Origin: a virus
Taxonomy: Duplodnaviria > Caudoviricetes
IMG/VR virus record: IMGVR_UViG_2775507207_000001
Location: 1-64,000 of that record
Reading direction: 5' to 3' (one strand)
DNA: 64,000 nucleotides
The position numbers were made by a program, and so were the translations under genes. Positions 22,053 to 52,062 of this stretch are shown piece by piece. Within the stretch, counting starts at the first letter, position 1, and each line of letters opens with the position of its first letter. Under the pieces are notes generated by a model, which was given only the letters and a program-made list of their open reading frames with translations, made no database searches and was not told the DNA's origin.

Positions 22053-22109
22053 TTTCAACCCACAAACAGCCCGCCCAGTGCGGGCTTTTTCATATCTGGA
22101 GTCTGCTTT

Positions 22110-22379: not shown

Positions 22380-22384
22380 TCACA

Positions 22385-23589: not shown

Positions 23590-23590
23590 A

Positions 23591-26312: not shown

Positions 26313-26414
26313 CGCCCCGCGCTGTCGGGGCGTTTTGCATTCCGACACACGTAACACAAACACCCTCCCGGCCTCGCTTATGCGGGGCTTTTTCGTTTCT
26401 GGAGCATTAGCTTT

Positions 26415-27581: not shown

Positions 27582-27593
27582 GGGGCCTAGTCA

Positions 27594-28097: not shown

Positions 28098-28111
28098 GGG
28101 AATAGATCCAA

Positions 28112-28711: not shown

Positions 28712-28823
28712 CCCTCACGTCATAAAGATGGCCGCGAAACGTCTGGCGGCGGAAACAGGATTTTCCGCTGCTGAGATTTTGTCGATGCCCTTTGCAGAAA
28801 TGGTGTGGTGGCTCACGGACTGA
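28707..28823 (+). CDS. GpE'-like chaperone extension in the +1 frame (or separate 31-aa gene from ATG 28728)
   Basis: FNPHVIKMAAKRLAAETGFSAAEILSMPFAEMVWWLTD-stop resembles the P2 E' pattern. Confidence 0.6.
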   Translation, partial: FNPHVIKMAAKRLAAETGFSAAEILSMPFAEMVWWLTD

Positions 28824-28861
28824 GCCGCCTTCGATAAGGCTATCCAAATGAGGGCCGTGAC

Positions 28862-31800: not shown

Positions 31801-31972
31801 GACCAAAGTGGAACAGCAGTTTCAGTATTCGCTGAACATGCCGGTTAACGTGCAGGGGGATGTGAAAGACCCGCAACGCCTGGCGCAAGACCTCATGCCG
31901 CACATGCGGCTAATGATGGCTGATGCGGCGAAACAAAACGCCGCAAAGCTGTACGACGAACCGCACCTGTAA
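28862..31972 (+). CDS. Tail tape measure protein with Pro/Arg-rich repeat insert
   Basis: 1036 aa, Ala/Gly-rich, C-terminal glycine-zipper segment; position after chaperone. Confidence 0.92.
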   Translation: MANKIALGLVIGGAVSSTVGAAFKDVTGRIKRLEAEGNKARVLQRTIGDTIRLRDEWKKAHDSGSQGATKLLGRLNSNLDSLKKQGIEVGRLEKAYRSMGQTAIKAELKAKGHQQIDAGKTGMKSAVGAAVVGVGMLAVPTKVSADFGAIVRDIAIKAGIANKPQEQEMSQKIIDTSRDTGMARNDVADVVNQLVGAGMDLSKALEYAPVAAKFVVGQGSSGVDTAKMINALGQNAKITDPRQMQQALEAIAYQGQAGSFEAADMAKWFPELLANMGSLGITGMDAVTQLGAMLQVQMKSAGGADEAANNLKNWMGKIGSGDTVKAYAKAGIDYKGSMQTGLQNGMSTLETSMSLAQKYIQATDPKRAAAMAEATAKISKESDPEKAKAMMASLEESLRTGDLFADMQVKAALSAYMQNKALYSQLKNDSRDATGILDKNLSERREASSQKWAEMAQSMDDAMRSVGDALRPVTDTVAEALTKVTRGITSLSDSAPGVVTGIAAVGGGFVALKGLLSSFKIAKGLLNVARGSLGGKSGEVQKVFVTNSKDGAGGVGKGGEAKGKASKALSLVETGLKAVAALKGESVDGEGKDESKTGKLGIVATGLKVVSLAKEAVSGDDSAGGDDAASNGDGVQKVFVVNLNAMGGPGGPGETRRRGRGSRRNIPRRRPTSLRARMPAPRPPVPRPAAPTPRPPVPRPAALAPRPALPRPAAPAPRPPLQRPAALVPRPAVPLPAAPAPRPPLPRPAVLVPRPPVPLPATPVPRPPLPRPAVPVPRPLIPPVSIPSGAIAKLGGVVQAVGKIGKAAKAIPGGSLIEAGAMAFDTYENAKTKDEKAEGYGAAAGNLAGTMAGAAAGAAIGSVVPIIGTAIGGLVGAYLGSMGGSALGGAAGKSWFGGEDEKPAPPVTPLLMAPRPGPAIPSLAAMGKSFNRADGSGALLMAPAPQAPILGDVARSLAVSAPTKPAAVAIQPKEPEKPVPTKVEQQFQYSLNMPVNVQGDVKDPQRLAQDLMPHMRLMMADAAKQNAAKLYDEPHL
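30896..31219 (+). repeat. About 9 x 36-bp tandem coding repeat (PAPRPPVPRPAA-like)
   Basis: Degenerate 12-aa units inside the tape measure gene. Confidence 0.9.
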
Positions 31973-31981
31973 GGAGGGCCT

Positions 31982-32827
31982 ATGGCTTATATGGAACAGA
32001 TGCAGTCGGGCTTCAAGTACCTGGTTGACGCCGGGGAGGCTGGTAGACGTAGTGCTGAGGGCATGCTTGGGCCCGTCAACGGTGCTATAAGGGAGATAAC
32101 GGGTGCAGCGGCCGAGCTGGAAAATATCCCGTTCGTGGGACCTGCTGTCGGTGCCAAGCTCCAGCGGGTGATGCGCGGCGTGGATGCGGCACAGGCCAAG
32201 GCCGGCCAGGTGCTGGCTGTGTACAGCCGTGCGACACGGGGCGCCGCCGAAGTGCAGGAGCGAATGGGGGCGTTGAAGGAGCAGGCGGGAAAAGCTGCGA
32301 CGGCGATCAACAAGGTCGCCGGAAAGGTTAATCCCTCGTTGGCAAACATCGTGCCCACCAGCGCATTTGCCGTGGATGCCACGCCGGCACCCGAAGCGGT
32401 GAAGCCATTTCCGCACCTGCTGATCATCCAGCCCAGGGATCCTAAAATTCAGCCGTACTACTTCAACTTGGATACAGCGGCCTTCGACGAATTGAGTCGC
32501 TCGACCGAATTCCGCTGGGCTTCACAGGAGCGGCTATCGCGGCGCCCGGCGCAGCAGGCCGTGGGCATGGGCGAAGAAAAGCTCACACTCAAAGGTACGA
32601 TTTATCCCGGCTTCAAGGGGGGCCTCAAGCAGCTTGACACGTTACGCACCATCGGTGGGCGGCTGCAACCGCTCACTCTGACCACGGGTTATGGCGAGGT
32701 GATTGGCACCTGGTGTCTGAAGTCGATCAACGAGGAGCAGGGCGCGCTGCTGCACGGCGGTATTCCGCGTAAACAAGTATTCACTCTGGAGTTCACGCGC
32801 TATGGGGACGACATGCAGAACATCTGA
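31982..32827 (+). CDS. Tail protein, P2 GpU-like with N-terminal helical extension
   Basis: FDELSRSTEFRWASQERL...GTIYP...GYGEVIGTW. Confidence 0.85.
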   Translation: MAYMEQMQSGFKYLVDAGEAGRRSAEGMLGPVNGAIREITGAAAELENIPFVGPAVGAKLQRVMRGVDAAQAKAGQVLAVYSRATRGAAEVQERMGALKEQAGKAATAINKVAGKVNPSLANIVPTSAFAVDATPAPEAVKPFPHLLIIQPRDPKIQPYYFNLDTAAFDELSRSTEFRWASQERLSRRPAQQAVGMGEEKLTLKGTIYPGFKGGLKQLDTLRTIGGRLQPLTLTTGYGEVIGTWCLKSINEEQGALLHGGIPRKQVFTLEFTRYGDDMQNI

Positions 32828-33008
32828 CGGGGACATGCTCGATGTCATATGCAATAACGTTTATGGGCACTTGAACGGCAGCGTCGAGGCAGTTCTGGAT
32901 GCCAATCAGGGCTTGGGAGACGAGCCCCAGCCTTTCCGCGCTGGTGTGGTGATCCTGCTGCCGGATCTGCCAGCCCCGACCGAGGAAGGGATTAGCTTGT
33001 GGGACTGA
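32802..33008 (+). CDS. Tail protein X
   Basis: GDMLDVIC...YG...VLDANQGL...LWD. Confidence 0.88.
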   Translation: MGTTCRTSDGDMLDVICNNVYGHLNGSVEAVLDANQGLGDEPQPFRAGVVILLPDLPAPTEEGISLWD

Positions 33009-33101
33009 CTCCGAACGGCACCGCCTGCAGCCCGTTGCGTTAAGCGAAAAGAAACTTTGTATTCAGCCCGCCCTGTGCGGGTTTTTCTTTGGAAAAAAAC
33101 C

Positions 33102-34148
33102 ATGACCCCCACTTTTCGTATCGTTGCCGACGGTGCCGATATTACGTCCAAGATCAATGATCGACTGTTGTTACTTAGGACTTCTGACAAGCCGGGTATG
33201 GAGTCCGACGAGTTTGAATTGCGTATCGATGACCGCGACGGCCAGGTGCAGTTGCCCCGGCGAGGTAGCTCAATCGAGATTCACCTGGGCTATGCCGAAA
33301 CGTCTTTGATGCGCCTAGGGCTTTACGCGGTCGACACGGTCGAAGTTTCCGGCCCGCCGGACACGATTGTGATCAAGGGTAAAGCCAGCGATATGCGCGG
33401 CAGTGGTAAGACTATCCGCAGCGGAAGCTGGGAGGATGCGCCGTTGTCGAAGATCGTGGCCGACATCGCGGCTCGAAATGGCTGGCAGGCAGGCTGTCCG
33501 GTGGCGACGAAGGTCGCTCGTGTGGATCAGCTCAACGAGTCCGACTTTAATTTCATCACGCGCCTGGCTAAGCAATACGACTGCACGGCCAAGGTCGCAG
33601 ATGGCAAATTGTTGGTGATGCCACGCCAGGGAGGCCAGACAGCCAGCGGCAAAACGTTCGGGGCGATCACGCTGACCCGCAGCGATCTCAGTCGCTGGCA
33701 ATTCAGCTTAGGGGATCGCAATTCGCACAAGGCCGTGGCGACTAAGCATCAGAACAAAAAGGACGGCAAATTGGCGGTGGTCACCATCGACAACGATGAC
33801 GCTCCGGACGGCTTGCCGGCGGTGCACACGGATCGGCATATCTATCCGAACAAGACTGCTGCTGAATCAGCAGCCAAGGCAAGGTTAGCGGCATTCAATC
33901 GCTCGACCGCCGACGTGCGTTTCGAGATGCCTGGCCGGACTGACATTTTTGCCGAGCGCCTGATCAACGCCCAGGGCTTCAAGGTCGGGCTGGATGGCGA
34001 ATACCTGGCAGATTCAGTGGAGCAGGTGTTTACCCAGTCTGGCTGGTCGACCACGGTCGAGTGCAATGCCGGCAAGCAAGGCAAATCCAAGGGTAAGAAA
34101 AAGAAGGAAACGAAGCCGCTCAAGGTCGTGAGCGTCGAGAAGCTGTAA
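33102..34148 (+). CDS. Late control D / baseplate hub protein
   Basis: ESDEFELRIDD, QLNESDFNFITRLA. Confidence 0.9.
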   Translation: MTPTFRIVADGADITSKINDRLLLLRTSDKPGMESDEFELRIDDRDGQVQLPRRGSSIEIHLGYAETSLMRLGLYAVDTVEVSGPPDTIVIKGKASDMRGSGKTIRSGSWEDAPLSKIVADIAARNGWQAGCPVATKVARVDQLNESDFNFITRLAKQYDCTAKVADGKLLVMPRQGGQTASGKTFGAITLTRSDLSRWQFSLGDRNSHKAVATKHQNKKDGKLAVVTIDNDDAPDGLPAVHTDRHIYPNKTAAESAAKARLAAFNRSTADVRFEMPGRTDIFAERLINAQGFKVGLDGEYLADSVEQVFTQSGWSTTVECNAGKQGKSKGKKKKETKPLKVVSVEKL

Positions 34149-34196
34149 TGCAATCCACCGCCGCCTGAGTGCGGTATTTTTTTGTCCGGAGTTTTT

Positions 34197-34760
34197 ATGA
34201 CGATCACTGAACAACAGCTACAACGCATCATGCCAAACGCCCGCCGACAAGCGGGCGTTTTTGTATCTGCCCTGAACGCGGCAATGGCGCATCGGCAGAT
34301 CAATACACCGAAACGCCAGGCTGCTTTCCTGGCGCAGCTTGGTCACGAGTCCGGTCAACTGCAGTATGTCCGCGAGCTGGGCGGGGACCAATACCTGAGT
34401 AAATACGATACCGGCACTCTGGCTGCCAAGCTTGGTAATACGCCAGCTGCAGATGGTGATGGTCAACGCTATCGTGGCCGAGGGTTGATCCAGATTACCG
34501 GGCACGATAACTACCTGCGCTGCAGTCTGGCACTGTTCGGCGATGAGCGATTGCTGCGCACTCCCGAGCTGCTCGAGCAGCCGCAATGGGCGGCAGAGTC
34601 GGCGGCGTGGTTCTGGTCCGTGAATGGGCTGAATGCGCTCGCGGATCAGGACCAGTTCAACACGATCACTCGCCGGATCAACGGCGGCCTTAATGGCCTG
34701 GAGGATCGGCTGCAGTTGTGGGCCAGGGCGAGGGCGGTGTTATGCGTCTCTTCGATCTGA
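34197..34760 (+). CDS. GH19 endolysin
   Basis: FLAQLGHESG, YRGRGLIQITG..NY, ITRRINGG.NG. Confidence 0.93.
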   Translation: MTITEQQLQRIMPNARRQAGVFVSALNAAMAHRQINTPKRQAAFLAQLGHESGQLQYVRELGGDQYLSKYDTGTLAAKLGNTPAADGDGQRYRGRGLIQITGHDNYLRCSLALFGDERLLRTPELLEQPQWAAESAAWFWSVNGLNALADQDQFNTITRRINGGLNGLEDRLQLWARARAVLCVSSI

Positions 34761-35284
34761 TCCCGGCGCAGTTCCGTATCGCCGCTATCAGCTTGCTGTT
34801 AGTGGTGGTGTCCGCAGGATCTGCAGCGTTGGCCTGGACTGCTCAGGACTGGCGTTATGGCAGCGTGCTGGAGCGGCAAGCCCGGCTGCAGGCGGACACC
34901 CTCAACGAAATATCCCAAGCTTCTGCTGCTCTGCAGCGTACCGAGCAGGACAAGCGCCTTGCCCTGGAGCTCCGCCTGCAGAACAAAGACGAAACCCACT
35001 ACAAGGAATTGACCGATGAGCAAATCAAGCAGGCTCGTCTGCGTGATCGCCTGGCTACTGCTGATCTGCGGCTGTCGGTCGTACTCGCCGCCACCGAAAC
35101 CGCCGGCAGCTGTTCAGTGCCAACCACCACCGCCACCGGCCGCGTGGTTCATGGCGCCACAAGAGCCCAACTTGACCCAGCGCATGCTCAACGAATTATC
35201 GGAGTCACCGATGCCGGCGACCGAGGATTGATCGCCCTGCGGGCCTGTCAGGCTTACGCAAAAGAAGTTTCTACACCGAAGTAA
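34742..35284 (+). CDS. Rz-like i-spanin
   Basis: N-terminal TM plus coiled coil; ALRACQAY. Confidence 0.88.
   Translation: MRLFDLIPAQFRIAAISLLLVVVSAGSAALAWTAQDWRYGSVLERQARLQADTLNEISQASAALQRTEQDKRLALELRLQNKDETHYKELTDEQIKQARLRDRLATADLRLSVVLAATETAGSCSVPTTTATGRVVHGATRAQLDPAHAQRIIGVTDAGDRGLIALRACQAYAKEVSTPK
35016..35231 (+). CDS. Rz1-like o-spanin lipoprotein embedded in Rz
   Basis: Lipobox LLICGC followed by a Pro-rich segment; nested in another frame of Rz. Confidence 0.82.
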   Translation: MSKSSRLVCVIAWLLLICGCRSYSPPPKPPAAVQCQPPPPPAAWFMAPQEPNLTQRMLNELSESPMPATED

Positions 35285-35399
35285 AAGGAGCGGCCGGGCA
35301 GGATGCGTCAACATCCAACCCGGCCACCTTCCCCGCAGATCGTCCCTGCAAGTCCAGCCAAGGCTCCTGCTTCGTGCACAAAGCGGAGCGAGCCTAGCA

Positions 35400-35415
35400 C
35401 TGTTTATCCATACAG
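35400..35415. promoter_or_regulatory. LexA (SOS) box upstream of adenine methyltransferase
   Basis: CTGT-TTATCCAT-ACAG. Confidence 0.7.
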
Positions 35416-35433
35416 CAAAGGTCTTGCTTTTTT

Positions 35434-36228
35434 ATGTCTACACCCATCGTCCCTTGGATGGGCGGCAAACGCCGCCTGGCCGACCGCCTTATCCCGCTCT
35501 TCCCGCCACACGAATGCTACGTTGAAGTCTTTGCCGGCGGCGCCGCGCTCTACTTCATGCGTCCCCAGGCAGCGCCTGTTGAAGTTCTTAACGACATCAA
35601 TGGCGACCTGGTCACGCTGTACCGCGTCGTGCAGAACCATCTGGAAGAATTCGTCCGCCAGTTCAAATGGGCGCTCAGTTCCCGCCAGGTGTTCGAGTGG
35701 CAAAAGATGACCCGCCCGGAAACCCTCACCGACATCCAGCGCGCCGCCCGTTTCTTTTACCTGCAGCACCATGCCTTCGCGGGCAAAGTGACCGGGCAGA
35801 CGTTCGGCACTGCAACGACCGGCCCAGCCATTAACCTTCTGCGGATCGAGGAAAACCTGTCTGCAGCATGGCAGCGTTTATCCGGCACTTATGTTGAAAA
35901 CCTGGGCTGGCTTGAATGTGCCGAGCGCTACGACCGTGCCCATACGTTCCACTACATGGATCCACCTTACTGGCAGACCGCCGGCTATGGTGTGGATTTT
36001 CCATTTGAGAATTACGAGCGCATGGCCGACTTTATGCGGCGCTGCAAAGGCAAGGTGATGGTCAGCATCAACGATCATCCCGATATCCGGCGAGTGTTTG
36101 ATGGGTTTCACTTTGAGATGGTGGACATTCGTTACAGCACCGCGAATGCGCGGCAGGGCAAGACCGAAGTCAGCGGAGAGTTGATAATCATGAACTGGGA
36201 GCCTGCAGCATTGGGAGGCCTGTTCTGA
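35434..36228 (+). CDS. DNA adenine methyltransferase (D12 class)
   Basis: WMGGK, YVEVFAGG, NDIN, DPPY. Confidence 0.93.
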   Translation: MSTPIVPWMGGKRRLADRLIPLFPPHECYVEVFAGGAALYFMRPQAAPVEVLNDINGDLVTLYRVVQNHLEEFVRQFKWALSSRQVFEWQKMTRPETLTDIQRAARFFYLQHHAFAGKVTGQTFGTATTGPAINLLRIEENLSAAWQRLSGTYVENLGWLECAERYDRAHTFHYMDPPYWQTAGYGVDFPFENYERMADFMRRCKGKVMVSINDHPDIRRVFDGFHFEMVDIRYSTANARQGKTEVSGELIIMNWEPAALGGLF

Positions 36229-36419
36229 TTTGAGAGGTAGATTACGCATCGCAATTTGCTATTCAAGTGAGGCGGCATGTCCATCTCGCCTGATGCTTAC
36301 TCACGCTTATTAAGAGTGGTGGCGTAATGGGTTCATTGAACTAAGATGAACCCTTTAGAGCTTATTGTGATCTTTCAATTACTCATTGGTAGCAGATGGA
36401 CAAGCGCATCGCAGGTCTT

Positions 36420-37169
36420 TCATTTCTGCTTACTCTCGGCTGGGTCACAGCCGTTATGTTCGTCATGTGGTTTTTCAGCTGATGGGTTCGGCCTTATAAG
36501 CTCTGCCCCCTGATTCCTGACGCTGCCCACTGCTTTGCCAACCGCATACCACTCAAAGTCCTCCACAGGCTGGCAACATTCCTTCGCTATTTCCTCGGCC
36601 CGGGCTGGAGTAAGGTAGGGGTCGATCCACTCCCTGGCATGCTCAGGTGTCAGCACCAACGGCTTGCGGTCGTGGATGTCCACCATGCCCTGATCACTGG
36701 CAGCGGTGATGATCACGAACCCATCGCCGTCCTGGGGATCCAGGCCAGGATGAATCTGGGCTAGTGCGCCAAAGAACATGGGCTTCTGACTCTTCAGGCG
36801 AATGAAGTAGGGCTGCTTTCTCTTCGGATCGTCAGGGTCTTTAACCCACTCATACCACCCTTCACTCGGCACCAGGGCTCGGCCATTCGGCCAAAGTTGC
36901 TTAAAAAACTTTCCCGTGGTGACCGTCTCTACACGGGCGTTAATCGGGTCGGGGCGTTTGCCCTTGGCCCAGAACGGCGCCCATCCCCATTTGACTGCAT
37001 CGATATGCAGCCCGTCCTCTGCGGCGTGCAGCAACTGAACCCGTGTCGACGGAGCGACGTTGTAGCGATCAATTGGCTGAGCGTCATAGCCGCTGAATAG
37101 CTCTATTTGGGGGCTCAGTTCTTCAATGAAGATCGCCATCCCTTCGTACTGCACAAATCGTCCGCACAT
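36420..37169 (-). CDS. SOS response-associated peptidase (SRAP/YedK family)
   Basis: N-terminal MCGRF, YNVAP, INAR.E, YEW, IHDR.P. Confidence 0.95.
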   Translation of the reverse strand: MCGRFVQYEGMAIFIEELSPQIELFSGYDAQPIDRYNVAPSTRVQLLHAAEDGLHIDAVKWGWAPFWAKGKRPDPINARVETVTTGKFFKQLWPNGRALVPSEGWYEWVKDPDDPKRKQPYFIRLKSQKPMFFGALAQIHPGLDPQDGDGFVIITAASDQGMVDIHDRKPLVLTPEHAREWIDPYLTPARAEEIAKECCQPVEDFEWYAVGKAVGSVRNQGAELIRPNPSAEKPHDEHNGCDPAESKQK

Positions 37170-37233
37170 ACGCCTTCTCCGTCTGTCGAAATCCCCTACA
37201 GAAAAATTGACCGCACGCGTCCTACAAAGTTAA

Positions 37234-37249
37234 CTGTACATTCGTACAG
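37234..37249. promoter_or_regulatory. LexA box between divergent SRAP and rulA
   Basis: CTGT-ACATTCGT-ACAG. Confidence 0.85.
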
Positions 37250-37269
37250 TGCATGTAAAAGGTCGCATC

Positions 37270-37695
37270 ATGAGCTTCACCATTTTAGGTCCTATCGCCG
37301 AGGCAGGCGTGAAGCTGCCTATGTGTTCGTTCCAGGTTCCGGCTGGCTTCCCTTCGCCGGCAGCGGATCATATTGAGCAGCACATCTCATTGGATGAGGT
37401 CCTGAATATCCGCGCACCGCATGTGTACCTGGTAGCCATCACCGGGGAAAGCATGCAGGGGATTGGTATCTTCGAAGGCGATCTCGCGGTGGTGGATCGT
37501 GCCATTGAGCCGGCGCACGGGCATGTGGTAGTGGCTCTGCTGAACAATGAGCCCGTCTGCAAGCGCCTATGTAAGCGCGGCCGAGAGGTAGTCCTTTTGT
37601 CAGAAAATCCCAAATACCCGGCGCGATACGTTCTCGAAGGGGATGAGCTATCAGTCTGGGGCGTGATCACCAGCACAGTGCGCAGCCATGTCTAA
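37270..37695 (+). CDS. rulA: Error-prone polymerase V subunit UmuD/RulA
   Basis: VPAGFPSPA cleavage site, GESM, VCKRL. Confidence 0.92.
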   Translation: MSFTILGPIAEAGVKLPMCSFQVPAGFPSPAADHIEQHISLDEVLNIRAPHVYLVAITGESMQGIGIFEGDLAVVDRAIEPAHGHVVVALLNNEPVCKRLCKRGREVVLLSENPKYPARYVLEGDELSVWGVITSTVRSHV

Positions 37696-38965
37696 GCAGC
37701 AACCGACCCTTGCGCTGGTCGACTGCAACAGCTTCTATGCCAGTTGCGAGCGAGTATTCCGGCCGGACTTGGCGAAGGTGCCCATCGTGGTGCTGAGCAA
37801 TAACGACGGCTGTGTCATTGCTCGCAGCTACGACGCCAAGCCATTCATCAAGATGGGCGAGCCGTATTTCCAGATCAAGCACAAGCTCAAGCAACACGGC
37901 ATTGTCGCGTTCTCCTCCAACTATGCGCTGTACGGCGACATGAGCGAACGCGTCATGAGTCTGATTGAGGCGATGGTGCCGGCAGTTGAGGTGTACAGCA
38001 TCGATGAGGCATTTGCCGATCTGACCGGTGTCGGTGGTTTGGATGCCTTAGGCCGGCAGATCCGCGCCCAGGTACTTCGCTGCACCGGCATACCTGTTGG
38101 TGTCGGTATTGCTCATACAAAGACCCTGGCGAAGCTGGCAAACCACACTGCGAAGCGCCTGCAATCGCAGACCGGTGGTGTGGTCAATATCACCGATCCG
38201 GTTAAGCGGGACTGGGTACTGCGTAATACGGACGTGGCGGAGGTGTGGGGCGTTGGCCGAAAGATGAAACTCCACCTCGATGCGATGGGAATCAAGTCTG
38301 CAATGGATTTGGCGAAGGCGGACCCCTGGACGCTCCGTAAGAAGTTCAGCGTTGTGATCGAGAAGACGGCCAGGGAGCTGGGCGACACGCCTTGCTTGGA
38401 GCTGGACGACCCGGATCCGCCGAAGCAGGAGATCTGCTGCAGCCGGATGTTCGGCCAGCGGCTGACGGAGCTGCCGCCTATCAAGGAAGCGGTGGCCACC
38501 TACATGATGCGAGCTTCTGAAAAGCTCCGCGCCCAGAACTCGCTGTGCAAGACGGTGCGCGTGAGCATCCGTACCGGCATGTTCAATCCAGAGGAGGCGA
38601 AGTATGCCAACGGAGTGGTGGTAGACATGCCATATCCCACCGATGACGTGCGACTGCTAACAAAGGCGGCTGTTGATGCGGTCGATCGTATTTACCGACC
38701 AGGCTTCAAATACAGTAAGGCTGAAGTGATGCTGCTCAACCTGTGTCAGCCCGGCGAGTATACCGATGATCTTTTCGCTATTTCGCAGCCTGCTGAGTCC
38801 ACCCGTGTGATGACAGTGCTAGACGAGATTAATGGTCGATGGGGGAGGGGAACGCTGCGGTCTGCCAGCGTTCCCAGCAACCCTGCTTGGGCTATGCGCC
38901 GGGAGATGATGAGCCACAGTTATACAACGAGAGTGGATCATTTATGGAGAGTCCGTTGCGAGTGA
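37688..38965 (+). CDS. rulB: Y-family DNA polymerase UmuC/RulB
   Basis: DCNSFYASCE, VLSNNDGC, YSIDE, WAMRREMMS. Confidence 0.95.
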   Translation: MSKQQPTLALVDCNSFYASCERVFRPDLAKVPIVVLSNNDGCVIARSYDAKPFIKMGEPYFQIKHKLKQHGIVAFSSNYALYGDMSERVMSLIEAMVPAVEVYSIDEAFADLTGVGGLDALGRQIRAQVLRCTGIPVGVGIAHTKTLAKLANHTAKRLQSQTGGVVNITDPVKRDWVLRNTDVAEVWGVGRKMKLHLDAMGIKSAMDLAKADPWTLRKKFSVVIEKTARELGDTPCLELDDPDPPKQEICCSRMFGQRLTELPPIKEAVATYMMRASEKLRAQNSLCKTVRVSIRTGMFNPEEAKYANGVVVDMPYPTDDVRLLTKAAVDAVDRIYRPGFKYSKAEVMLLNLCQPGEYTDDLFAISQPAESTRVMTVLDEINGRWGRGTLRSASVPSNPAWAMRREMMSHSYTTRVDHLWRVRCE

Positions 38966-39055
38966 GCGGATTAGCCTAGTTTAGAATGAAGCACGTACGA
39001 CAAAATTATGACGAAAAAAAACAGAATGTCGCTCTGTTGACAAAATCATGACGGC

Positions 39056-39106
39056 AGGTACGATCAAGGCATGCGCCGCAACGCGGCGCATGCCTTGATC
39101 GTACCT
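39056..39106. repeat. Perfect 24-bp inverted repeat with 3-nt loop
   Basis: AGGTACGATCAAGGCATGCGCCGC-aac-GCGGCGCATGCCTTGATCGTACCT. Confidence 0.95.
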
Positions 39107-39126
39107 ATGCACAAAAACTACCTAAC

Positions 39127-39154
39127 AAAAAACCCCGCATTTGCGGGGTTTTTT
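39127..39154. terminator. Bidirectional intrinsic terminator
   Basis: A-run, CCCCGCA-tt-TGCGGGG, T-run. Confidence 0.8.
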
Positions 39155-39168
39155 GGCGAAATAGGCTG

Positions 39169-39483
39169 TCAGGCTATTGCCCGTTCCTCTTTCAATTGAT
39201 GTGCTCTATCGTTAATCACGAACTTGATAATCGACTTGACATCATCAGGGCAGTTCTTAAACGAAATATGCGACAGAACGGTGCGACCACGTTTAAGGAT
39301 CAGCCCACCGATCAGTTCGTCCACGAAGGACTGTGTGGCATCTTTGCCCGAAAAATCGATTGCAACATTCTGGCCGGTTTCCAGGCATCGTTCGATTTCC
39401 TTTCGAAACGGCGTGGCAGATGCCCTCATACCCAGCGTGCGGATGCTTTCTGATCCTTTCGCTAAGATGATTTGAGTTTGCAT
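39169..39483 (-). CDS. STAS-like domain protein (DUF4325-like)
   Basis: LGMRASA, VAIDFSG...TQSFVDELIG pattern. Confidence 0.8.
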   Translation of the reverse strand: MQTQIILAKGSESIRTLGMRASATPFRKEIERCLETGQNVAIDFSGKDATQSFVDELIGGLILKRGRTVLSHISFKNCPDDVKSIIKFVINDRAHQLKEERAIA

Positions 39484-39582
39484 GGCGCTTCCCTCGGCAA
39501 TTTTATGCGTTGTACAAAATTTATCGTACGCATCAGTGAAAATATTAGCTAGATCTATCTGGTAAGTAAATTGACGCTAGGA

Positions 39583-40614
39583 TCACTCAAAACTGATGTC
39601 GTCATCGACTGCATCCTCTACATCAGGCAGCAGCGCAGCAATTGTGATCTGCGGCAATTTGTCGCGGTTGCAGTGAAAAGAGATAGCAACCCCTTTCCAG
39701 GGAGCATTTTCCAACCGCACTGCGTCGTCCGTTTTTGTGTTCAAGCAAGCGTCTCCGCTTGCTATTACGAGAAAGCCATCAGCTGCCTGAGCAATTCTAG
39801 CTGTTGTTGTCAAACCTACACCTTGATTTTGGCTATCTCCTTCATAGCCAACCAACGGCCCCCGATTACAACTGACGCGAGCGACCAGCGCTGCACGGAT
39901 AGCAGCTGAATCAGTTCGTTCCTTAAGCTGAGCGTGCCCTCGGAGGGTTGCAAGGAAGCCACAACCGTTGTCAACGATAGCTAGTCTTACGTCTCCATTT
40001 GACTGGAAGTGTTGACATGCGACCCATACCGAAGCCTGAAAATTCCCTTCTTTTTTTGCATGAGAAAGCGCATTTTCTAGGAGTTCTTTTAGCGCGTATT
40101 CAATCGGGCGCCTGTATGAGTCCATTTCTTCTTGAGTTCGCTCCTCCGCCTCTCCAACCATGGCAACTGCGAGACGCGATGCAATCTCTTCAGATTGGCC
40201 ATTGACGACCTTAACCAGCTCAACACATCGATCCGGTTCACCCTGAGGGTTTCTTGCAGTCTCGACATCAATACCGTCAACGCTCAAACCTCCGAAAAAC
40301 TCCATCCTGATCAGATAATCAAGTAGGTGCTGTTGCATCCAGCGCACATGAAAAGTTTTATCGATAGCTGACTCGAGAGTGGCACGGAGCAAAGCCAGAC
40401 CCAACGGATCGACAAACGAAAGCGTCGATGCGTCCAGAATCACATCCCCATCACGATTGGCGATTTGTGAACAGAACTCAAAAATCAAGCCCGGCTCTGA
40501 GTCGCTTAGCGTTCGAGGGAAATAGATAACATCTTCCGTTGTGAGTACATCCTGCTCGACCACACTCAAATCCTTGAAAAATTTTGGCGACAGACTATAT
40601 CGATGTGCCAGCAT
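39583..40614 (-). CDS. STAS-like N-terminus fused to a GHKL/histidine-kinase-like ATPase
   Basis: VILDASTLSFVDPLGL; N-box ELLENALSHA; G1 DNGCGF; G2 GVGL. Confidence 0.82.
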   Translation of the reverse strand: MLAHRYSLSPKFFKDLSVVEQDVLTTEDVIYFPRTLSDSEPGLIFEFCSQIANRDGDVILDASTLSFVDPLGLALLRATLESAIDKTFHVRWMQQHLLDYLIRMEFFGGLSVDGIDVETARNPQGEPDRCVELVKVVNGQSEEIASRLAVAMVGEAEERTQEEMDSYRRPIEYALKELLENALSHAKKEGNFQASVWVACQHFQSNGDVRLAIVDNGCGFLATLRGHAQLKERTDSAAIRAALVARVSCNRGPLVGYEGDSQNQGVGLTTTARIAQAADGFLVIASGDACLNTKTDDAVRLENAPWKGVAISFHCNRDKLPQITIAALLPDVEDAVDDDISFE

Positions 40615-40681
40615 CCATTCAATGAGTTGCAGACTGTAAGCTCGTCTGGCCGATGAGTGGCCTCAATCATTTACGCTTATG

Positions 40682-40697
40682 CTGTATGAATATACAG
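40682..40697. promoter_or_regulatory. LexA box about 70 bp upstream of the GHKL gene
   Basis: CTGT-ATGAATAT-ACAG. Confidence 0.75.
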
Positions 40698-41000
40698 GAT
40701 TTTGCAATCAATGAATGGCTATATTTTGGCTTTCAGATTTTGAGCACCTATCCCAGTCTGCTACCAGCATTTTTTAGAGAGGTGCCTCAAGCGAGTGGGC
40801 ATATTCGAGAATCTTGCGGACCCGAAGTGACGCGACCATGAACTCTGTGCGTAGTGGCGGGATGATCAAGGACTGGTTGCTTAGGAATTGCTACGGGAGC
40901 TGATGCGCTACGCCTTGTATGCAGAGCCTGCTCAACATTTGGGGAGGACTATGTCCAATACATCATCGAAGCAAGGTACAGACTGAATTGACCGAACCCC

Positions 41001-43088: not shown

Positions 43089-43460
43089 CTATTTTGACCT
43101 ACGCCCACTAGCCGGAAACAACCCTCGGATCACCCCAAGAAACGCCGCAAACAGATTGATTGAAGTCGCCGTAGTGATAGCAATCAACACATTGTCCGAG
43201 AACGGCGCTTTGCCCGAGTAATACGTCGACCACCCATTCCACACCAGTAAAACCGCCCAGAAGATCACACCACAAGCGGCAAACCAAAACGCCCGACCCG
43301 CATATTTCTTGCGCAGTTGCCTTTCGGCCTTCTGGTCTTTGAGGTTCTGGTTTCTTTCATCGTCGGTGCCTATGGCTTGCTCGCCACCGGCTTGGGTGTC
43401 CTGGTCAGGCCCTGCCGCGGGGGGCAGGGTGAGTTCCAGGTTGTCGAGTTCTTCACTCAC
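43089..43460 (-). CDS. 2-TM membrane protein, putative toxin partner of Panacea
   Basis: GTG start overlaps the Panacea 3' end; acidic N-terminus plus two TM helices. Confidence 0.72.
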   Translation of the reverse strand: MSEELDNLELTLPPAAGPDQDTQAGGEQAIGTDDERNQNLKDQKAERQLRKKYAGRAFWFAACGVIFWAVLLVWNGWSTYYSGKAPFSDNVLIAITTATSINLFAAFLGVIRGLFPASGRRSK

Positions 43461-43941
43461 GGATGCGGCTCTTTGGGTGAATGAGTGTTGCCATGTCTTC
43501 CCAGTCGATGGCGGAACCGTCGGCGCCCTTGAGGGCCCAGGCTGTGCCGTCCTCGTGGGAGAGGTTGGACAGTTGGGTGCCAGACCACTTGCCGTATTTG
43601 TTGATGATCCGGTCAATCAAACGATGGGTGTAGGTGTCGCTCTCAGGCACTCTCGGTGTCACGAACACAATATCTTCGGCGTCGGGCTTCAGATTGCTGA
43701 GCAACGACGTCACCGGACGATTACCGTAGGATTTCAACTCATGGTAAAGCGACGGGATGACCGGACCATATTGCCAGCGGGCAAAGTGATCATCCATAAG
43801 GGGCTGATCCCGTTCGCGCAAATGCCAGGACTGCGTATAAAACAGCAGTTTTTGCAGCTTCATGGGCGTCAGGCCCGAAAGCTTGCCTTCCTTCGCACGT
43901 TCAATGAAGGCGTTAGCGACAGCTAGCGCTGAATAAGCCAT
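43453..43941 (-). CDS. Panacea (DUF4065/SocA-like) antitoxin-domain protein
   Basis: LTPMKLQKLLFY, WQYGPVIPSLY, LSNLSH...AW. Confidence 0.9.
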   Translation of the reverse strand: MAYSALAVANAFIERAKEGKLSGLTPMKLQKLLFYTQSWHLRERDQPLMDDHFARWQYGPVIPSLYHELKSYGNRPVTSLLSNLKPDAEDIVFVTPRVPESDTYTHRLIDRIINKYGKWSGTQLSNLSHEDGTAWALKGADGSAIDWEDMATLIHPKSRIRE

Positions 43942-44062
43942 GAGCACCTCCGTCGTTGCTGGCTACGTTGTCCAAGAGTTTTATACATAGGCCTTGAGTT
44001 GTCGACATGCAAGGTGTCGACCGGCAGCAATACCAAGCTGTCGGATAATAGAGCGTCGATAA

Positions 44063-44078: not shown

Positions 44079-44174
44079 TATTTTGATTCAAGTTAAGTGA
44101 AAGACGCGTGTTTAATGCATAAATATGCAAATTAGCATTTGCCAACCCCAAAAACTCCCGTCACTATCCGCGCT

Positions 44175-44909
44175 ATGCAAAAACGCAACGTTTCTATCGT
44201 CTTAAGAGAGCTGCTGGACCGCGACCGGATCTCCCCCACGGAGCTTCACCGGCGCACTGGCGTGCCTCAATCCACACTGTCCCGGATCCTCAGCGGCAAG
44301 ATCGTTGATCCGTCGGATAAACACATCTCCCGTATCGCCGAGTATTTCCGCGTGAGCACTGATTACCTGCGCGGGCGCGCGGCAGTGGGTGCTTTGCGCG
44401 ATGACGGGCGTGACCCGATGCATTCGGAACTCAAGGACATAAGCCTGTGGGACGACGACACCCCCGTTAATGATGACGAGGTGTCGATCCCCTTTCTGCG
44501 CGAGGTTGAATTGGCTGCTGGATCAGGAAGATTCGTCATCGAGGAAAGCGAGAAGGCCAGCCTGCGGTTCGGCAAGCGCAGCCTGCGGCATAACGGTGTG
44601 CAGTTCGACCAGGCCAAGTGCGTGACGGTACGCGGCAACAGTATGTTGCCGGTGTTGCGCGACGGCGCCACGGTAGGGGTGAATGCCGGCAAGAGCGGCA
44701 TTGGCGATATCGTCGATGGTGACTTGTATGCCATCAATCACAACGGCCAGTTGCGGGTTAAACAGCTCTACCGCCTGCCTTCCGGCATTCGCCTGCGCAG
44801 CTTCAATCGTGATGAGCACCCCGATGAGGACTACAGCTTCCAGGAGATCCAGGATGAGCAGATCAGTATCCTCGGTCATGTTTTCTGGTGGGGCATGTAC
44901 GCCCGCTAA
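44175..44909 (+). CDS. prtR: PrtR-like tailocin repressor (HTH plus S24)
   Basis: HTH VPQSTLSRILSG; AAGSG cleavage site; GNSM; VKQL. Confidence 0.9.
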   Translation: MQKRNVSIVLRELLDRDRISPTELHRRTGVPQSTLSRILSGKIVDPSDKHISRIAEYFRVSTDYLRGRAAVGALRDDGRDPMHSELKDISLWDDDTPVNDDEVSIPFLREVELAAGSGRFVIEESEKASLRFGKRSLRHNGVQFDQAKCVTVRGNSMLPVLRDGATVGVNAGKSGIGDIVDGDLYAINHNGQLRVKQLYRLPSGIRLRSFNRDEHPDEDYSFQEIQDEQISILGHVFWWGMYAR

Positions 44910-44926: not shown

Positions 44927-44953
44927 AAACCCGCCCATGTGCGGGTTTTTTTT
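44927..44953 (+). terminator. prtR terminator
   Basis: AAACCCGC-ccatgt-GCGGGTTT followed by a T run. Confidence 0.8.
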
Positions 44954-44996: not shown

Positions 44997-45069
44997 ATGC
45001 ATTAATGCATTTCCATGGTAAAAATAAATGCATCTGTGCATTGACTGTATATGCATACATGCATATTCT
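44997..45069 (+). promoter_or_regulatory. Tailocin promoter with three ATGCA-N4-TGCAT operators
   Basis: TTGACT (45041)-N17-TATTCT (45064); palindromes at 44997, 45028, 45051; related site at 44125 upstream of prtR. Confidence 0.8.
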
Positions 45070-45075
45070 TCACCT

Positions 45076-45430
45076 CAAGCCAGCCAACAAGGCCTGGTGG
45101 AGGCGGCAAGGATGCTGCCAAGGAAGACAAGGAAGGCACGCAACATCGGCAAGGACGCCATCGAAGCGATGGCAGGGATGCCAGGCAACACCGGCAAGGA
45201 TGCCGACGCTCTTTAGTTTCAACGCTTCAACAACAGGCAGCGATGAACCGGCCTTAACGGTTCAGAGGGTTGGCAACTGACCCGGGTGTGCAGCGTAAAG
45301 CACCAGAAGCAGTTATCCGGCAGACAGGGATCGTGGTCGGAAAAACATCGAGGAAAGGACCGTACCGCGCCAGTAGCGCCGAAAGTCCGAGGACAGCATT
45401 ACTGAAAAGCCCGGGCGACCGGGCTTTTTG
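45076..45430 (+). ncRNA. Candidate GGA-rich leader/sRNA (Rsm-sponge-like) ending in an intrinsic terminator
   Basis: About 12 GGA motifs, four in GGC-A(A/G)GGA(T/C)-GC(C/T) hairpin loops; boxA-like GCTCTTTA at 45208; terminator AAAAGCCCGG-gcga-CCGGGCTTTTT. Confidence 0.6.
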
Positions 45431-45499
45431 GAATGCCTACCTACCCAAGCATTTGTAAATGAAATACGGACTATTTATTGCTCAGCCAGGAGGCGTGAC

Positions 45500-45838
45500 A
45501 TGACAAATGAACAGCAAGCGTTAGCGGAAATGCCTATCTGGCTGGTGATCGTATTGGCGGTGATCGGCGGGGTCTCAGGTGAAATGTGGCGCGCCGATAA
45601 AGAAGGCGCACGTGGCTGGTCGCTGATCCGCCGATTGGCCCTGCGTTCCGGGGCGTGCATGGTCTGTGGGGTGTCGGCCCTGATGCTGTGCTACGCCGCC
45701 GGCATGTCGATCTGGACCGCCGGCGCCATTGGTTGCCTGACCGCCATGGCCGGTGCCGACGTGGCCATCGGCCTTTATGAGCGATGGGCGGCCAAGCGCA
45801 TCGGGATCAACCAAGGCTCCGGCCAGGACCCGCACTAA
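45500..45838 (+). CDS. hol: Tailocin holin
   Basis: Multi-TM, GGAGG RBS, first gene of the operon. Confidence 0.9.
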   Translation: MTNEQQALAEMPIWLVIVLAVIGGVSGEMWRADKEGARGWSLIRRLALRSGACMVCGVSALMLCYAAGMSIWTAGAIGCLTAMAGADVAIGLYERWAAKRIGINQGSGQDPH

Positions 45839-45861
45839 TCGTTGCAAGGACGCGACTTAAA

Positions 45862-49532: not shown

Positions 49533-50318
49533 ATGATGGGACTTGAAACGACTATCACGAAAGTTGTGGACGCATGTAATAAGCTTACGGAAACGGTTAC
49601 CAACCAAATTGGGAAGATTGATGCGCGGGTAGAGGCCGCTTCAAATCAGTTTACTGCTTGGCGTAATAGTGTGCAGGCGAAGGATATTAATGGTCGTGCG
49701 CTTTATAAACAGGATATTGATCTCACTGGGTTGTCTACCGACGTATTTTACCCTGTTTGGTGGACTATGCCCGGTAACGAGGCGGGTGAAACAGAAATTA
49801 CCGTCTCGCGGGTATATTATCGAGACCAGGAAAAAGCGCCCTTTGGTCAAGGGATTTATCACATCGCTGGCTTGAACTTGCAGCTTGAGGGTGTCGGATA
49901 TATATGGAATGGTGATGCTAACTTTCTAGCTATTAAGCGGATCTCCCAAACTTACCGTGAAACGGTGAGAGGTGTTTCGTTTGGTATGATTTGTACAGCG
50001 CGTGCCATTACTGGGCTCAAACCTATGTACTTAGGTTTGGTCGCGGGGCAACAAACGAACGCTCCACAGTTTTCTGGGATGTACCTGAGGGGTGGGCTGA
50101 GCTATACCATCACTAAAACGTTTGATTATCCTGTTAACTACAGCAAGTTAGATACTGAAGTGATTATGAAGGATGACGTTAACGCTGATTGGGAAGTTCG
50201 TTGGGCGGTGAAACCTTATAGCTTGACTCAGGCTGACGCTGTGCTCGGCAAAGCCTTTGAAGAGAAGCGCCTGGCCTATTCCCACGATAACGACGCTCGC
50301 TATACCGCCAAGGTTTAA
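49533..50318 (+). CDS. Putative tail fibre / receptor-binding protein
   Basis: N-terminal coiled coil, FYPVWW, YLRGG; lower GC. Confidence 0.7.
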   Translation: MMGLETTITKVVDACNKLTETVTNQIGKIDARVEAASNQFTAWRNSVQAKDINGRALYKQDIDLTGLSTDVFYPVWWTMPGNEAGETEITVSRVYYRDQEKAPFGQGIYHIAGLNLQLEGVGYIWNGDANFLAIKRISQTYRETVRGVSFGMICTARAITGLKPMYLGLVAGQQTNAPQFSGMYLRGGLSYTITKTFDYPVNYSKLDTEVIMKDDVNADWEVRWAVKPYSLTQADAVLGKAFEEKRLAYSHDNDARYTAKV

Positions 50319-50329
50319 GGACTGATCAA

Positions 50330-50632
50330 ATGACTTTGTTTATCGGAAAGTTGGTAACTCCTGCGGGCGACTCGTTGATCAACGTACCCGCCAGCCCGCA
50401 GACCCTCAAAGGTCTGGGCTTTAGCGATGAGGCCGCTCAGACGCTGATCGAGAACGCCGCGGCCGCAGCCGCACTCGCTAGCACTATTGCTGCCCGCCGT
50501 TCTGCCTATGTCAGCGAAGCTGACCCGATGTACCTCGAATGGCAATTCGACGGTACGGCTGAGAAGGAAAAAGAATGGCGAGCCAAAGTAGCCGAAATCA
50601 AGGCGCGCTACCCTTTGCCAGAAGAAAAGTAA
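50330..50632 (+). CDS. Tail fibre assembly chaperone
   Basis: RRSAY..EADPMYLEW...WRAKVAEIKARYPLP. Confidence 0.7.
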   Translation: MTLFIGKLVTPAGDSLINVPASPQTLKGLGFSDEAAQTLIENAAAAAALASTIAARRSAYVSEADPMYLEWQFDGTAEKEKEWRAKVAEIKARYPLPEEK

Positions 50633-50719
50633 CCCCCACCGCGAAAGCGGTTTTTTTTCGCCTCCCCAAAGCCCCTCCCCGCAGGGGCTTTTGCATTTTC
50701 CACCCGGAGATTTCCACCC

Positions 50720-50893
50720 ATGCCCACCCGCCAAACCTACACCGTCCTCATCCCATTCCCCATCGGCAACGGCCATTGGTCCACCGCCGGCGAGGAGCTG
50801 GAACTGCTCGACGTCGAAGCATCCGCCCTGCGCACCGCTGGCCGCCTGGAACTGACCAGCGTCCTCAACTCCACCCCCAAGAAGGCTGAATAA
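50720..50893 (+). CDS. Small hypothetical protein (57 aa)
   Basis: GGAGA RBS; MPTRQTYTVLIPFP...KKAE ends 2 nt before the sheath start. Confidence 0.65.
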   Translation: MPTRQTYTVLIPFPIGNGHWSTAGEELELLDVEASALRTAGRLELTSVLNSTPKKAE

Positions 50894-50895
50894 CC

Positions 50896-52062
50896 ATGGC
50901 AGAAGTCCTGAACTTCGAGCACAACGGCATCACTGTGAATGCCACTGAATCCCCCGAGGCCATGGGTGGCCTTGGCGATAACGTCATCGGCCTGGTCGGC
51001 ACTGCACCGAATGCCCATGCGTCGATCCCGAAAAACGCGCCGTTTCGCATCAACAGCTTCACCACCCAGGCGCTGCTGGACCCTACCGGCACCGAGTCGG
51101 GCACCTTGTTCCAGGCGGTGTACCAGATCCTCAAAGTGGTCAAGGTGCCGGTCTATGTCGTGATCGTCGAAGAGGGCGCTACCCCGGCCGACACGATCAA
51201 CAATGTGATCGGCGGCAACGACCCGGTCACCGGCCGAAAACTGGGCCTGGCGGCCCTGAGCAGCGTGCCAGAAGACCTGACCATCATCGGCGCTCCAGGC
51301 TTTACCGGCACCAAGGCTGTGGCCGGTGAGTTCGCCTCCTTCGGCAAACGCATCAAGGCCCGTGTGGTGCTCGATGGCAAAGACGCTTCCGTTGCCGACC
51401 AAGTGACCTACAGCGGCGAACTGGGCGGGGCCGACCTGGGCTTCGACCGTTGCCTGCTGGTGCACAACATGCCGTCGGTGTACTCCAAGGCCGCGAAGAA
51501 GAACGTGTTCCTGTCGCCATCCTCGCTGGCCATCGCCGCACTGGCCAAGGTCAAGCAGTGGGAAAGCCCGGGTAATCAGGTGACCTTCGCCGAGGACGTT
51601 TCCCGCGTGGTCGAGTACAACATCCTCGACACCTCCACCGAAGGCGACCTGCTCAACCGCTATGGCGTGAGCTACTACGCCCGCACCATCCTCGGCGGCT
51701 TCTCGCTGCTCGGTAACCGCTCCATCACCGGCAAGTTCATCAGCTACGTCGGCCTGGAAGATGCCATCAGCCGCAAGCTGGTCAAGGCCGGCCAGAAAGC
51801 CATGGCCAAGAACCTCACCAAGTCCTTCATGGACCAAGAGGTCAAGCGCATCAACGACTGGCTGCAAACCCTGGTGGCCGACGAAACCATCCCCGGCGGC
51901 AGCGTGTATCTGCACCCAGAACTGAACAGCGTCGAGAAGTACAAGAACGGCACCTGGTTCATCGTCATCGACTACGGCCGCTACGCGCCGAACGAACACA
52001 TGGTTTATCAACTCAACGCCCGCGATGAAATCATCGAGCAGTTCCTGGAGGACGTTCTCTAA
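50896..52062 (+). CDS. Tailocin sheath protein
   Basis: VIGLVGTAP, IIGAPGF, ESPGNQ, LLGNR. Confidence 0.9.
   Translation: MAEVLNFEHNGITVNATESPEAMGGLGDNVIGLVGTAPNAHASIPKNAPFRINSFTTQALLDPTGTESGTLFQAVYQILKVVKVPVYVVIVEEGATPADTINNVIGGNDPVTGRKLGLAALSSVPEDLTIIGAPGFTGTKAVAGEFASFGKRIKARVVLDGKDASVADQVTYSGELGGADLGFDRCLLVHNMPSVYSKAAKKNVFLSPSSLAIAALAKVKQWESPGNQVTFAEDVSRVVEYNILDTSTEGDLLNRYGVSYYARTILGGFSLLGNRSITGKFISYVGLEDAISRKLVKAGQKAMAKNLTKSFMDQEVKRINDWLQTLVADETIPGGSVYLHPELNSVEKYKNGTWFIVIDYGRYAPNEHMVYQLNARDEIIEQFLEDVL

Follow-up and report, generated by a model that had tools for sequence, protein, structure and literature searches.

The put site of the temperate phage HK022 consists of two stem-loops in about 70 nt. 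Excerpts of PMC9378689 state that put works without any phage protein and over a distance of at least 10 kb. Here we describe the region between the repressor gene prtR and the holin gene, the first gene of an R-type tailocin operon, in a stretch of 64,000 nt of DNA (the window; positions 1 to 64,000 of the virus record IMGVR_UViG_2775507207_000001). Features lie on the plus strand unless stated otherwise. The leader RNA encoded there resembles HK022 putL and putR in that a cis-acting structured RNA comes directly from a repressor-controlled early promoter of temperate phage type, with no gene for an N-type protein in front and stop signals after it. It differs from put in that it is about 200 nt long, has six helices and a pseudoknot, often carries a boxA and occurs in one copy per phage, and in that no homology is detectable (the covariance model R1 reaches at most 5.6 bits in the HK022 early region). 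With lambda nut and the rrn antitermination leaders it shares a boxA 8-mer identical to that of the host rrn operons, and it leads a long operon at the nutL position. However, a small boxB-like hairpin together with an N gene is missing here, and boxA is absent from 22 of 22 leaders of one class (class P, see below) and is placed differently relative to the 5' hairpin P0 in tailocins and in phages.

One lineage of these leaders also carries a block of GGA hairpins. Like RsmZ, RsmY and RsmX, this block has several A-N-GGA-N hairpin loops together with unpaired GGA, and the host has three CsrA-family genes (counted in a near-identical genome). Unlike these RNAs, it is one module of an mRNA leader, transcribed from an SOS-type promoter with PrtR-type operators, and has no Gac-activated gene of its own; with the RsmZ model it scores 22.2 bits against a gathering score of 44. 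GGA sites in a long 5' leader such as this one are also known from CsrA-controlled mRNAs (pgaA of E. coli, with Rho, and the fim mRNA decoy of Salmonella); binding to GGA sites in long leaders could alter termination or provide a local decoy. To our knowledge, the pgaA and fim leaders contain neither a phage-type structured RNA nor a boxA.

According to excerpts of PMC12066065, the tailocins of environmental Pseudomonas have no PrtN activator, and how they are switched on beyond PrtR is an open matter. Our literature search yielded no description of this leader RNA, of a put-like Pseudomonas RNA or of a link between Rsm and a tailocin leader. The terms leader, UTR (untranslated region) and terminator did not occur in the searched portion of PMC12066065, nor did tailocins in those of PMC11841057 and PMC4353343. 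The excerpted text of Mavrodi et al. 2009 (PMC2647930) calls the segment from prtR to hol highly conserved and notes nothing more about it. An earlier note on this DNA had taken the start of the operon for an RNA that resembles an RsmA/CsrA sponge. The main object is a new and widespread leader RNA of phage type, which probably serves as an antitermination signal. With about even confidence, we read the stretch as a repressor-controlled promoter and an untranslated leader of about 360 nt that would confer put- or nut-like antitermination on the R-type tailocin operon, with Rsm acting as a lineage-specific input and not being sponged. A conserved, unannotated, pseudoknotted leader common to phage pL operons is a concrete candidate for the tailocin switch beyond PrtR.

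The core RNA and its phage relatives

No supported open reading frame (ORF) was found in the 590 nt that separate prtR (44139-44909) from the holin gene (45500-45838). A coding leader was rejected because its ORFs begin 5' of the promoter or continue through the terminal hairpin P5, and because homologous leaders show indels of 1, 2 and 15 nt. A 4-codon ORF at 45243 was likewise rejected as a gene, since its stop codon is gone in other loci. From 45236 on, the sequence is far better conserved than its flanks. This portion, the core RNA (45236-45436), is about 200 nt long, folds into six helices with a pseudoknot and follows a 5' hairpin. The GGA hairpins described in the earlier note are real; the pseudoknotted RNA, which is the conserved part, had escaped it.

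The 5' domain of the core (45236-45340) contains P1a (45244-45250/45258-45264), a pseudoknot helix of four pairs (45267-45270/45280-45283), P2 (45275-45279/45310-45314), P2a (45285-45289/45300-45304) and P3 (45317-45325/45333-45340). It is followed by P4 (45357-45388), whose GGAC/GUCC arms at 45357-45360/45385-45388 enclose a GCGC-CAGUA-GCGC hairpin, and by P5 (45397-45436). The 5' hairpin P0 folds from 45079-45097 at the start of the transcript. The same stretch forms a hairpin of at least five pairs, with differing stems, in 50 of 50 distinct homologues, and P0 is also found in phage leaders.

This structure was evaluated on 33 sequences, four phages among them. Pairing was retained in 98.6% of the cells, and compensatory changes on both sides were seen in 13 of 28 pairs; none of 500 shuffles reached any of the measures, and slid controls gave 18–45% pairing and 0–3 compensatory pairs. 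Both helices of the pseudoknot covary: at 45267-45270/45280-45283, U:A is replaced by G:C or U:G and G:C by U:A, and in the phages Medea1 and Aurca01 P2 changes from AACUG:CAGUU to CACUA:UAGUG. In P4, all four pairs show compensatory changes, and 99.7% of the cells are paired. The junctions and loops of the core, such as GCAGCGUAAAGC and GGCCU, hardly vary. RNAalifold applied to the 73 closest relatives had shown almost no covariation (1 of 39 pairs), and its CAGC:GUUG helix was dropped in favour of the pseudoknot helix because phage sequences contradict it.

The covariance model R1 scores 145.8 bits on the core of the window. A search of Rfam 15 gave no match over 45236-45436 up to an E-value of 10 except sX12 on the P5 hairpin, a match of 29 nt and 17 bits against a gathering score of 106. 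BLAST detects the core in 223 of the 401 genomes that were sampled within the genus (222 of 400 if the unpublished genome G102 is left out), and R1 finds it, divergent variants included, in 10 genomes of an even sample of 151 across the family. A 22-base bipartite pattern detects it in at least 120 viral contigs, and ten records of a phage collection match it. Anchoring on the holin gave 80 loci (L001-L080), to which further genomes were added. The leader core (45200-45395) was found in 74 of these 80 loci, and a prtR homologue lies 5' of the leader in 74 of 80. One locus, L045, retains the GGA block, boxA and P5 and has lost the core.

In the phages PseuP_224, Orimi01, Aurca01 and Medea1, the element opens the operon 3' of cI and opposite cro, which carries erf, ndpA and int. 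No gene separates promoter and RNA, either in these phages or in the window. Lambda nutL and HK022 putL occupy the same position, and the tailocin promoter is therefore homologous to pL. A second, putR-like copy was not found in the phages, each of which has one. The ancestral part of the leader is the core RNA and not the GGA block.

A wider claim can be formulated, namely that a new class of RNA-based processive antiterminators replaces PrtN, Q or N in Pseudomonas tailocins and in many temperate Pseudomonas phages, as an analogue of put that is unrelated in sequence and works with boxA and Nus factors, and that it has been fused to an Rsm array in the P. fluorescens subgroup. We advance this claim only tentatively and consider it possible rather than likely. 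If true, RNA-based antitermination signals, of which very few are known, would gain a second natural family. The leader RNA also marks the early promoters of tailocins and prophages for genome annotation.

Promoter, boxA and the hairpin P5

The promoter TTGACT-N17-TATTCT, which had been noticed before, is present at 45041-45069, with the -35 hexamer at 45041-45046 and the -10 hexamer at 45064-45069; together with operator-like ATAAATGCAT repeats it spans 45023-45069. A single match of this kind is at chance level in 2 kb (1.2 expected). A regular expression that covers the -35 hexamer and the beginning of the spacer finds a match in 131 of 144 sequences. The SOS box has the consensus CTGT-N8-ACAG, and the promoter spacer contains CTGTATATGCATACAT at 45045-45060, with the form CTGT-N8-ACAT, which we take to be SOS-box-like. 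This site could be a source of induction by mitomycin C (MMC) independent of PrtR. A LexA site has been reported 5' of the tailocin operon of strain SBW25 in the excerpted text of PMC8544851, and the wording of the operator, ATAAATGCATTTAC, is taken from an excerpt of PMC12066065.

Excerpts of PMC12066065 also report on P. protegens CHA0. A reporter with the whole 516-bp region between prtR1 and hol was induced by about 3 log, in the wild type and in a strain without the entire tailocin cluster. If this CHA0 region contains the core, read-through therefore needs no protein of the cluster. The CHA0 operator lies 391 bp from hol, which on reading fits a leader of the class K type (see below), and CHA0 probably has no GGA block.

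The boxA-like site proposed at 45208 is indeed there: GCTCTTTA occupies 45208-45215 within the boxA CGCTCTTTAG (45207-45216). By itself, this 8-mer is not significant in the window, with three occurrences against 1.01 expected. It equals the boxA of the rrn leaders in the near-identical genome G001. In G001, GCTCTTTAACAA has six exact copies, and the three that were examined all lie about 150 nt 5' of 16S rRNA; the 8-mer of the leader is therefore the core of the host rrn boxA. Judged by GCUCUUUA, the form found in host rrn leaders, the site qualifies as a boxA, its 8-mer being identical. Its conservation on the transcribed strand of homologous leaders is significant. The exact 8-mer lies within 200 nt in 50 of the 77 viral-contig leaders with enough upstream sequence, and on the reverse strand in none of the 77. 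The boxA thus looks functional and is a predicted NusB/NusE site.

Distinct leaders were sorted into four classes named F, K, intermediate and P. Class F, which according to record titles consists of species of the P. fluorescens subgroup, comprises 57 distinct leaders with 5–8 GGA, 4–6 of them in loops, and an exact boxA in 57 of 57. The 22 leaders of class K have 0–2 GGA and none in loops; boxA is exact in 19 of them and present within one mismatch in 21. The three intermediate leaders (0–3 GGA, 0–2 in loops) all have the exact boxA, and none of the 22 leaders of class P does (0–3 GGA, 0–1 in loops). Class P has only about 67 nt between the -10 hexamer and the core. In the phages Aurca01 and Medea1 and in the prophage leaders L156 and L157, boxA (CGCTCTTTAG, CGTTCTTTAG or CGCTCTTTGG) lies 5' of P0 and not 3' of it.

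The leader ends in P5 (45397-45436), a hairpin of 18 pairs with arms AAAAGCCCGG/CCGGGCTTTT, a folding energy of -30.6 kcal/mol and a z-score of -6.2. It has a GCCCGG/CCGGGC stem, a U5 run at 45426-45430 and a basal helix GCAUU/AAUGC. A strong terminator had been placed at 45405-45430, and the hairpin with its U run bears this out, as it fits the definition of an intrinsic terminator, a GC-rich hairpin directly followed by a run of U. P5 was not in the output of a simple consensus terminator scan, probably because its U run pairs with a run of A. The U5 run is retained in 122 of 125 tailocin leaders, while the apex varies freely. In the three other tailocin leaders and in phage PseuP_224, the helix is kept without the U run, AAAAG:CUUUU being replaced by G/C pairs. 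P5 thus appears to be a structural helix of the whole family and, in tailocins, a terminator-like signal as well.

It is possible that the core and P5 form a sensing attenuator, either riboswitch-like or protein-dependent, in which transcription stops at P5 unless a ligand or host factor connected with DNA damage permits read-through. The near-invariant junctions and loops (GCAGCGUAAAGC and GGCCU) are reminiscent of ligand-binding RNAs, a conserved terminator-like hairpin follows, and MMC still raises the output of the 516-bp region of CHA0 by about 3 log in the absence of PrtR1, from which the authors infer further regulation (excerpts of PMC12066065). However, inserts of 0–100 nt occur between core and P5, and this variable spacing suits action at a distance and not an aptamer that competes with a terminator. 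On reading the sequences, no covarying alternative pairing between core and P5 was seen. Pairing of the core CCCGGG with one arm of P5, as an antiterminator, was rejected, since terminator stems vary while the core is constant and there is no covariation. In addition, phage versions lack the U run after P5, and the MMC effect could be accounted for by the SOS-box-like site in the promoter, given the LexA site at the SBW25 operon (excerpt of PMC8544851). We therefore judge an attenuator improbable.

The core could also serve the mRNA itself, as a 5' stabiliser, as a processing site with P5 as an RNase III-type substrate, or as a regulator of holin translation. P0 is located at the very 5' end of the transcript, and the 18-pair helix of P5 is kept by compensatory change even without its U run. 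Yet the distance to the first gene ranges from about 60 nt to about 2 kb and the first gene differs among loci, no part of the RNA pairs with the holin ribosome site, and the complexity and invariance of the core would go beyond the needs of a stabiliser. A service to the mRNA seems quite unlikely on these grounds. A search for convincing long-range complementarity between the leader and the holin region found none.

Some loci (L048, L051, L057, L064, L068, L076, L079 and others; also L141) carry 0.6–1.5 kb of extra genes between leader and holin. Such loci carry the terminator module a second time, in front of the holin gene. In L141 (strain Q8r1-96), the inserted genes are annotated as a Com-like Orf3 and Orf4, and the annotation of Orf3 overlaps P5.

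The GGA hairpin array

Between P0 and boxA lies the GGA block (45099-45205). Reading and folding place four hairpins at the sites that had been proposed for them, on the transcribed strand: GGCGGC-AAGGAT-GCTGCC (45102-45119), GGC-AAGGAC-GCC (45148-45159), TGGC-AGGGAT-GCCA (45170-45183) and CGGC-AAGGAT-GCCG (45192-45205). Unpaired GGA stand at 45122 and 45131. The total of about 12 GGA that had been given agrees with our count of 13 GGA and 8 A-N-GGA in 45076-45436. The raw number is unremarkable in this G+A-rich stretch: a 114-nt block holds seven GGA against 4.5 in shuffles, and 557 of 5000 shuffles reach that number. Their placement is another matter. Five GGA lie within hairpin loops of the block against 0.71 expected, a number reached by one of 5000 shuffles, and four of the A-N-GGA-N hairpin loops are clear and one marginal. 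Of the five matches to the motif GCARGGAYGC in the 64-kb window (1.18 expected), four fall within the 98 nt of 45106-45203. Tandem Repeats Finder reports a period of 22 nt over 45128-45209.

The consensus site of RsmA/E is an A-N-GGA hexaloop. All 57 class F leaders carry the GGA block, which is almost invariant among them except for the loop bases that flank GGA: A, G and C occur before it, and all four bases after it. In none of the four hairpins does GGA vary across class F. Such freedom of the loop N next to a fixed GGA within one lineage would be expected of sites bound by RsmA/E, and we regard the block as the probable binding platform of RsmA/E/I. Some class F leaders have an extra GACAAGGAA unit; the array therefore grows by duplication.

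Outside class F, the picture is different. None of the 44 distinct leaders of classes K and P has GGA in at least four hairpin loops, and the block was not found in the phage and prophage leader versions that were read. The segment 45094-45204 is missing in about one third of the 80 holin-anchored loci, where boxA lies about 30 nt from the promoter. Among 80 viral contigs with the core, at least four loop GGA occur in 15, all of which adjoin a holin 89–100% identical to that of the window. The GGA block is thus an insertion specific to the tailocins of the P. fluorescens subgroup and not the core of the leader. Conservation of the GGA loops across homologous leaders, as expected of a general sponge, holds in class F and fails beyond it.

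The Rfam model for RsmZ/PrrB (RF00166) gives 22.2 bits on 45084-45216 (E-value 0.006 in a search of 701 nt) against a gathering score of 44, so that the block falls below the threshold for membership and still has the multiple loop GGA of the family. In a whole-genome search of G001 with this model, the leader was not among the matches; the true rsmZ alone passed, with 122.2 bits, and two unrelated places reached 21–22 bits. Derivation of the block from rsmZ was rejected, as BLAST of the block against three genomes found nothing beyond the leader itself and one degenerate second leader in genome G130. The true rsmZ of G001 (C1:4885737-4885871) lies about 5 kb 5' of its tailocin leader (4890748). 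The Rfam search found no rsmZ in the window, because a prophage fills the space 5' of prtR there. The second leader of G130 (L161, G130:C1:2432500-2437000) is of the class F type with boxA, core and an altered P5. Its GGA block is shortened, its first loop lacks GGA, and it has no adjacent prtR; two minus-strand ORFs about 1 kb 5' of it look on reading like transposase fragments.

According to the sponge idea, cleavage of PrtR would release a discrete RNA of about 360 nt that ends at 45430 and soaks up RsmA/E, thereby coupling induction to the Gac/Rsm regulon. The four clear and one marginal A-N-GGA-N loops, the two unpaired GGA and the spacing of about 22 nt speak for it, as do the conservation of GGA in 57 of 57 class F leaders, the weak match to the RsmZ model (22.2 bits, E-value 0.006 in the 701-nt search) and a U5 hairpin, retained in 122 of 125 leaders, that would be able to release the RNA. 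However, the block is absent from class K, class P and the phage and prophage versions read, remains below the RsmZ gathering score of 44 and is not listed in the whole-genome RsmZ search. Seven GGA on one induced mRNA would also face the dedicated competitors RsmX/Y/Z, and a producing cell that lyses would presumably gain little from re-tuning its regulon. Lysis of the producer and the late, local arrival of the block make a sponge unlikely in our view; what stands of that proposal is the likeness of the GGA loops to Rsm sites within class F.

The GGCAAGGATGCC repeats, spaced by 22 bp, might instead act as DNA, as sites for a transcription factor 3' of the promoter. They are direct repeats about two helical turns apart, and each unit is partly palindromic. 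Against this, their conservation follows the logic of an RNA, with GGA fixed and the loop N free, and the GGA-loop hairpin appears again at 45841-45856, as a ribosome-binding site. Moreover, chromatin immunoprecipitation (ChIP) of PrtR1 in CHA0 gave a peak at the operator and none in the leader (excerpts of PMC12066065; CHA0 is the strain that probably lacks the block). A function as DNA sites is thus highly improbable.

The recurring hairpin, GUUGC-AAGGAC-GCGAC, is the fifth match to GCARGGAYGC in the window and forms the ribosome-binding site of the gene next to the holin gene, the second of the operon (ATG at 45862). GCAAGGA is present at this site in 45 of the 46 loci L001-L046 and in none of the 34 loci L047-L080. 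The hairpin is a candidate translational operator for Rsm.

Proposed mechanism and neighbouring features

The leader is built of modules: P0, the lineage-specific GGA hairpin array, boxA and the pseudoknotted RNA of about 200 nt that ends in P5. Of these, P0 and the knotted RNA, and in most versions also boxA, derive from the pL (early-left) leader of temperate Pseudomonas phages. In the antitermination reading that we favour, the nascent RNA, together with NusB/NusE at boxA, may convert RNA polymerase to a form that reads through P5 and later stops. Antitermination would then proceed as with HK022 put RNA or the lambda nut site and replace the missing activator of the PrtN or Q type. The suggestion in the earlier note that the leader itself is the second regulator fits these findings.

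In the P. fluorescens subgroup, RsmA/E/I would bind the array 2–3 nt 5' of boxA. Since the last GGA hairpin ends 2–3 nt before boxA, bound Rsm could hinder NusB/E or the folding of the RNA. Free Rsm protein, present when Gac is off, would then interfere with the loading of Nus factors or with RNA folding and favour termination. Translational control may be added by the GGA hairpin at the ribosome site of the second gene. Rsm would be an input to tailocin production and would not be titrated by the leader. The lineage-specific array would offer a direct route for Gac/Rsm control of a lethal public-good trait. If the wider claim above is true, the decision to make a suicidal weapon would be gated at transcription elongation by DNA damage, through PrtR, and by the social state sensed by Gac/Rsm.

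Several observations weigh against this proposal. No likeness to put is detectable, the best R1 score in HK022 22000-40751 with filters off being 5.6 bits (E-value 1.4), and each phage has one copy where HK022 has putL and putR. boxA is not essential to the family, because class P (0 of 22) does without it. P5 may be mainly a structural helix, given that the phages and three tailocin leaders have forms of it that lack the U run. Terminator-like hairpins within the cluster are at chance level (25 found against 19.5 ± 5 expected), and a constitutive terminator seems pointless if each transcript bears its own antiterminator. The CHA0 region may lack the core, and its MMC induction without PrtR1 may simply reflect LexA at the promoter. 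Rsm binding is predicted from motif and conservation only, and the lineage restriction of the array and that of the GGA ribosome site are confounded by common ancestry and are not independent.

The window as a whole consists of a P2-like prophage remnant followed by the R-type tailocin cluster. The product of prtR is a repressor of the LexA/cI type (Pfam HTH_3, 2.5e-9; Peptidase_S24, 8.9e-19). Its gene is followed at 44927-44953 by a terminator hairpin with a U8 run, read from the sequence and covered by weak matches to leader-terminator models in the Rfam search. The holin belongs to Pfam Phage_holin_3_5 (7.3e-52) and is 100% identical to holins of P. lactis, P. paralactis and P. salmasensis. 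According to Pfam, baseplate V, baseplate J and P2-I genes follow it.

The prophage remnant 5' of prtR contains genes for GPD (33057-34148), a Dam methylase (35434-36228), SRAP (36420-37169), a UmuC-like protein (37688-38965) and SocA/Panacea (43453-43947). Within it lies a C4 antisense RNA on the minus strand (Rfam RF01695, 41894-41980, 82.7 bits against a gathering score of 45), the sole Rfam match at gathering score in the 64-kb window. Further into the cluster, a gap of 578 nt (50318-50896) in the plus-strand array of tail genes holds two adjacent terminator-like hairpins at 50638 and 50668. The gene directly after it (50896-52062), which has no Pfam match, was taken as the sheath gene. 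Among the holin-anchored loci, L075 (JBNQGB010000002.1) is titled Gordonia sp. and shows a typical Pseudomonas tailocin locus (holin 84% and prtR 86% identical); this record is probably a mislabelled or contaminated assembly.

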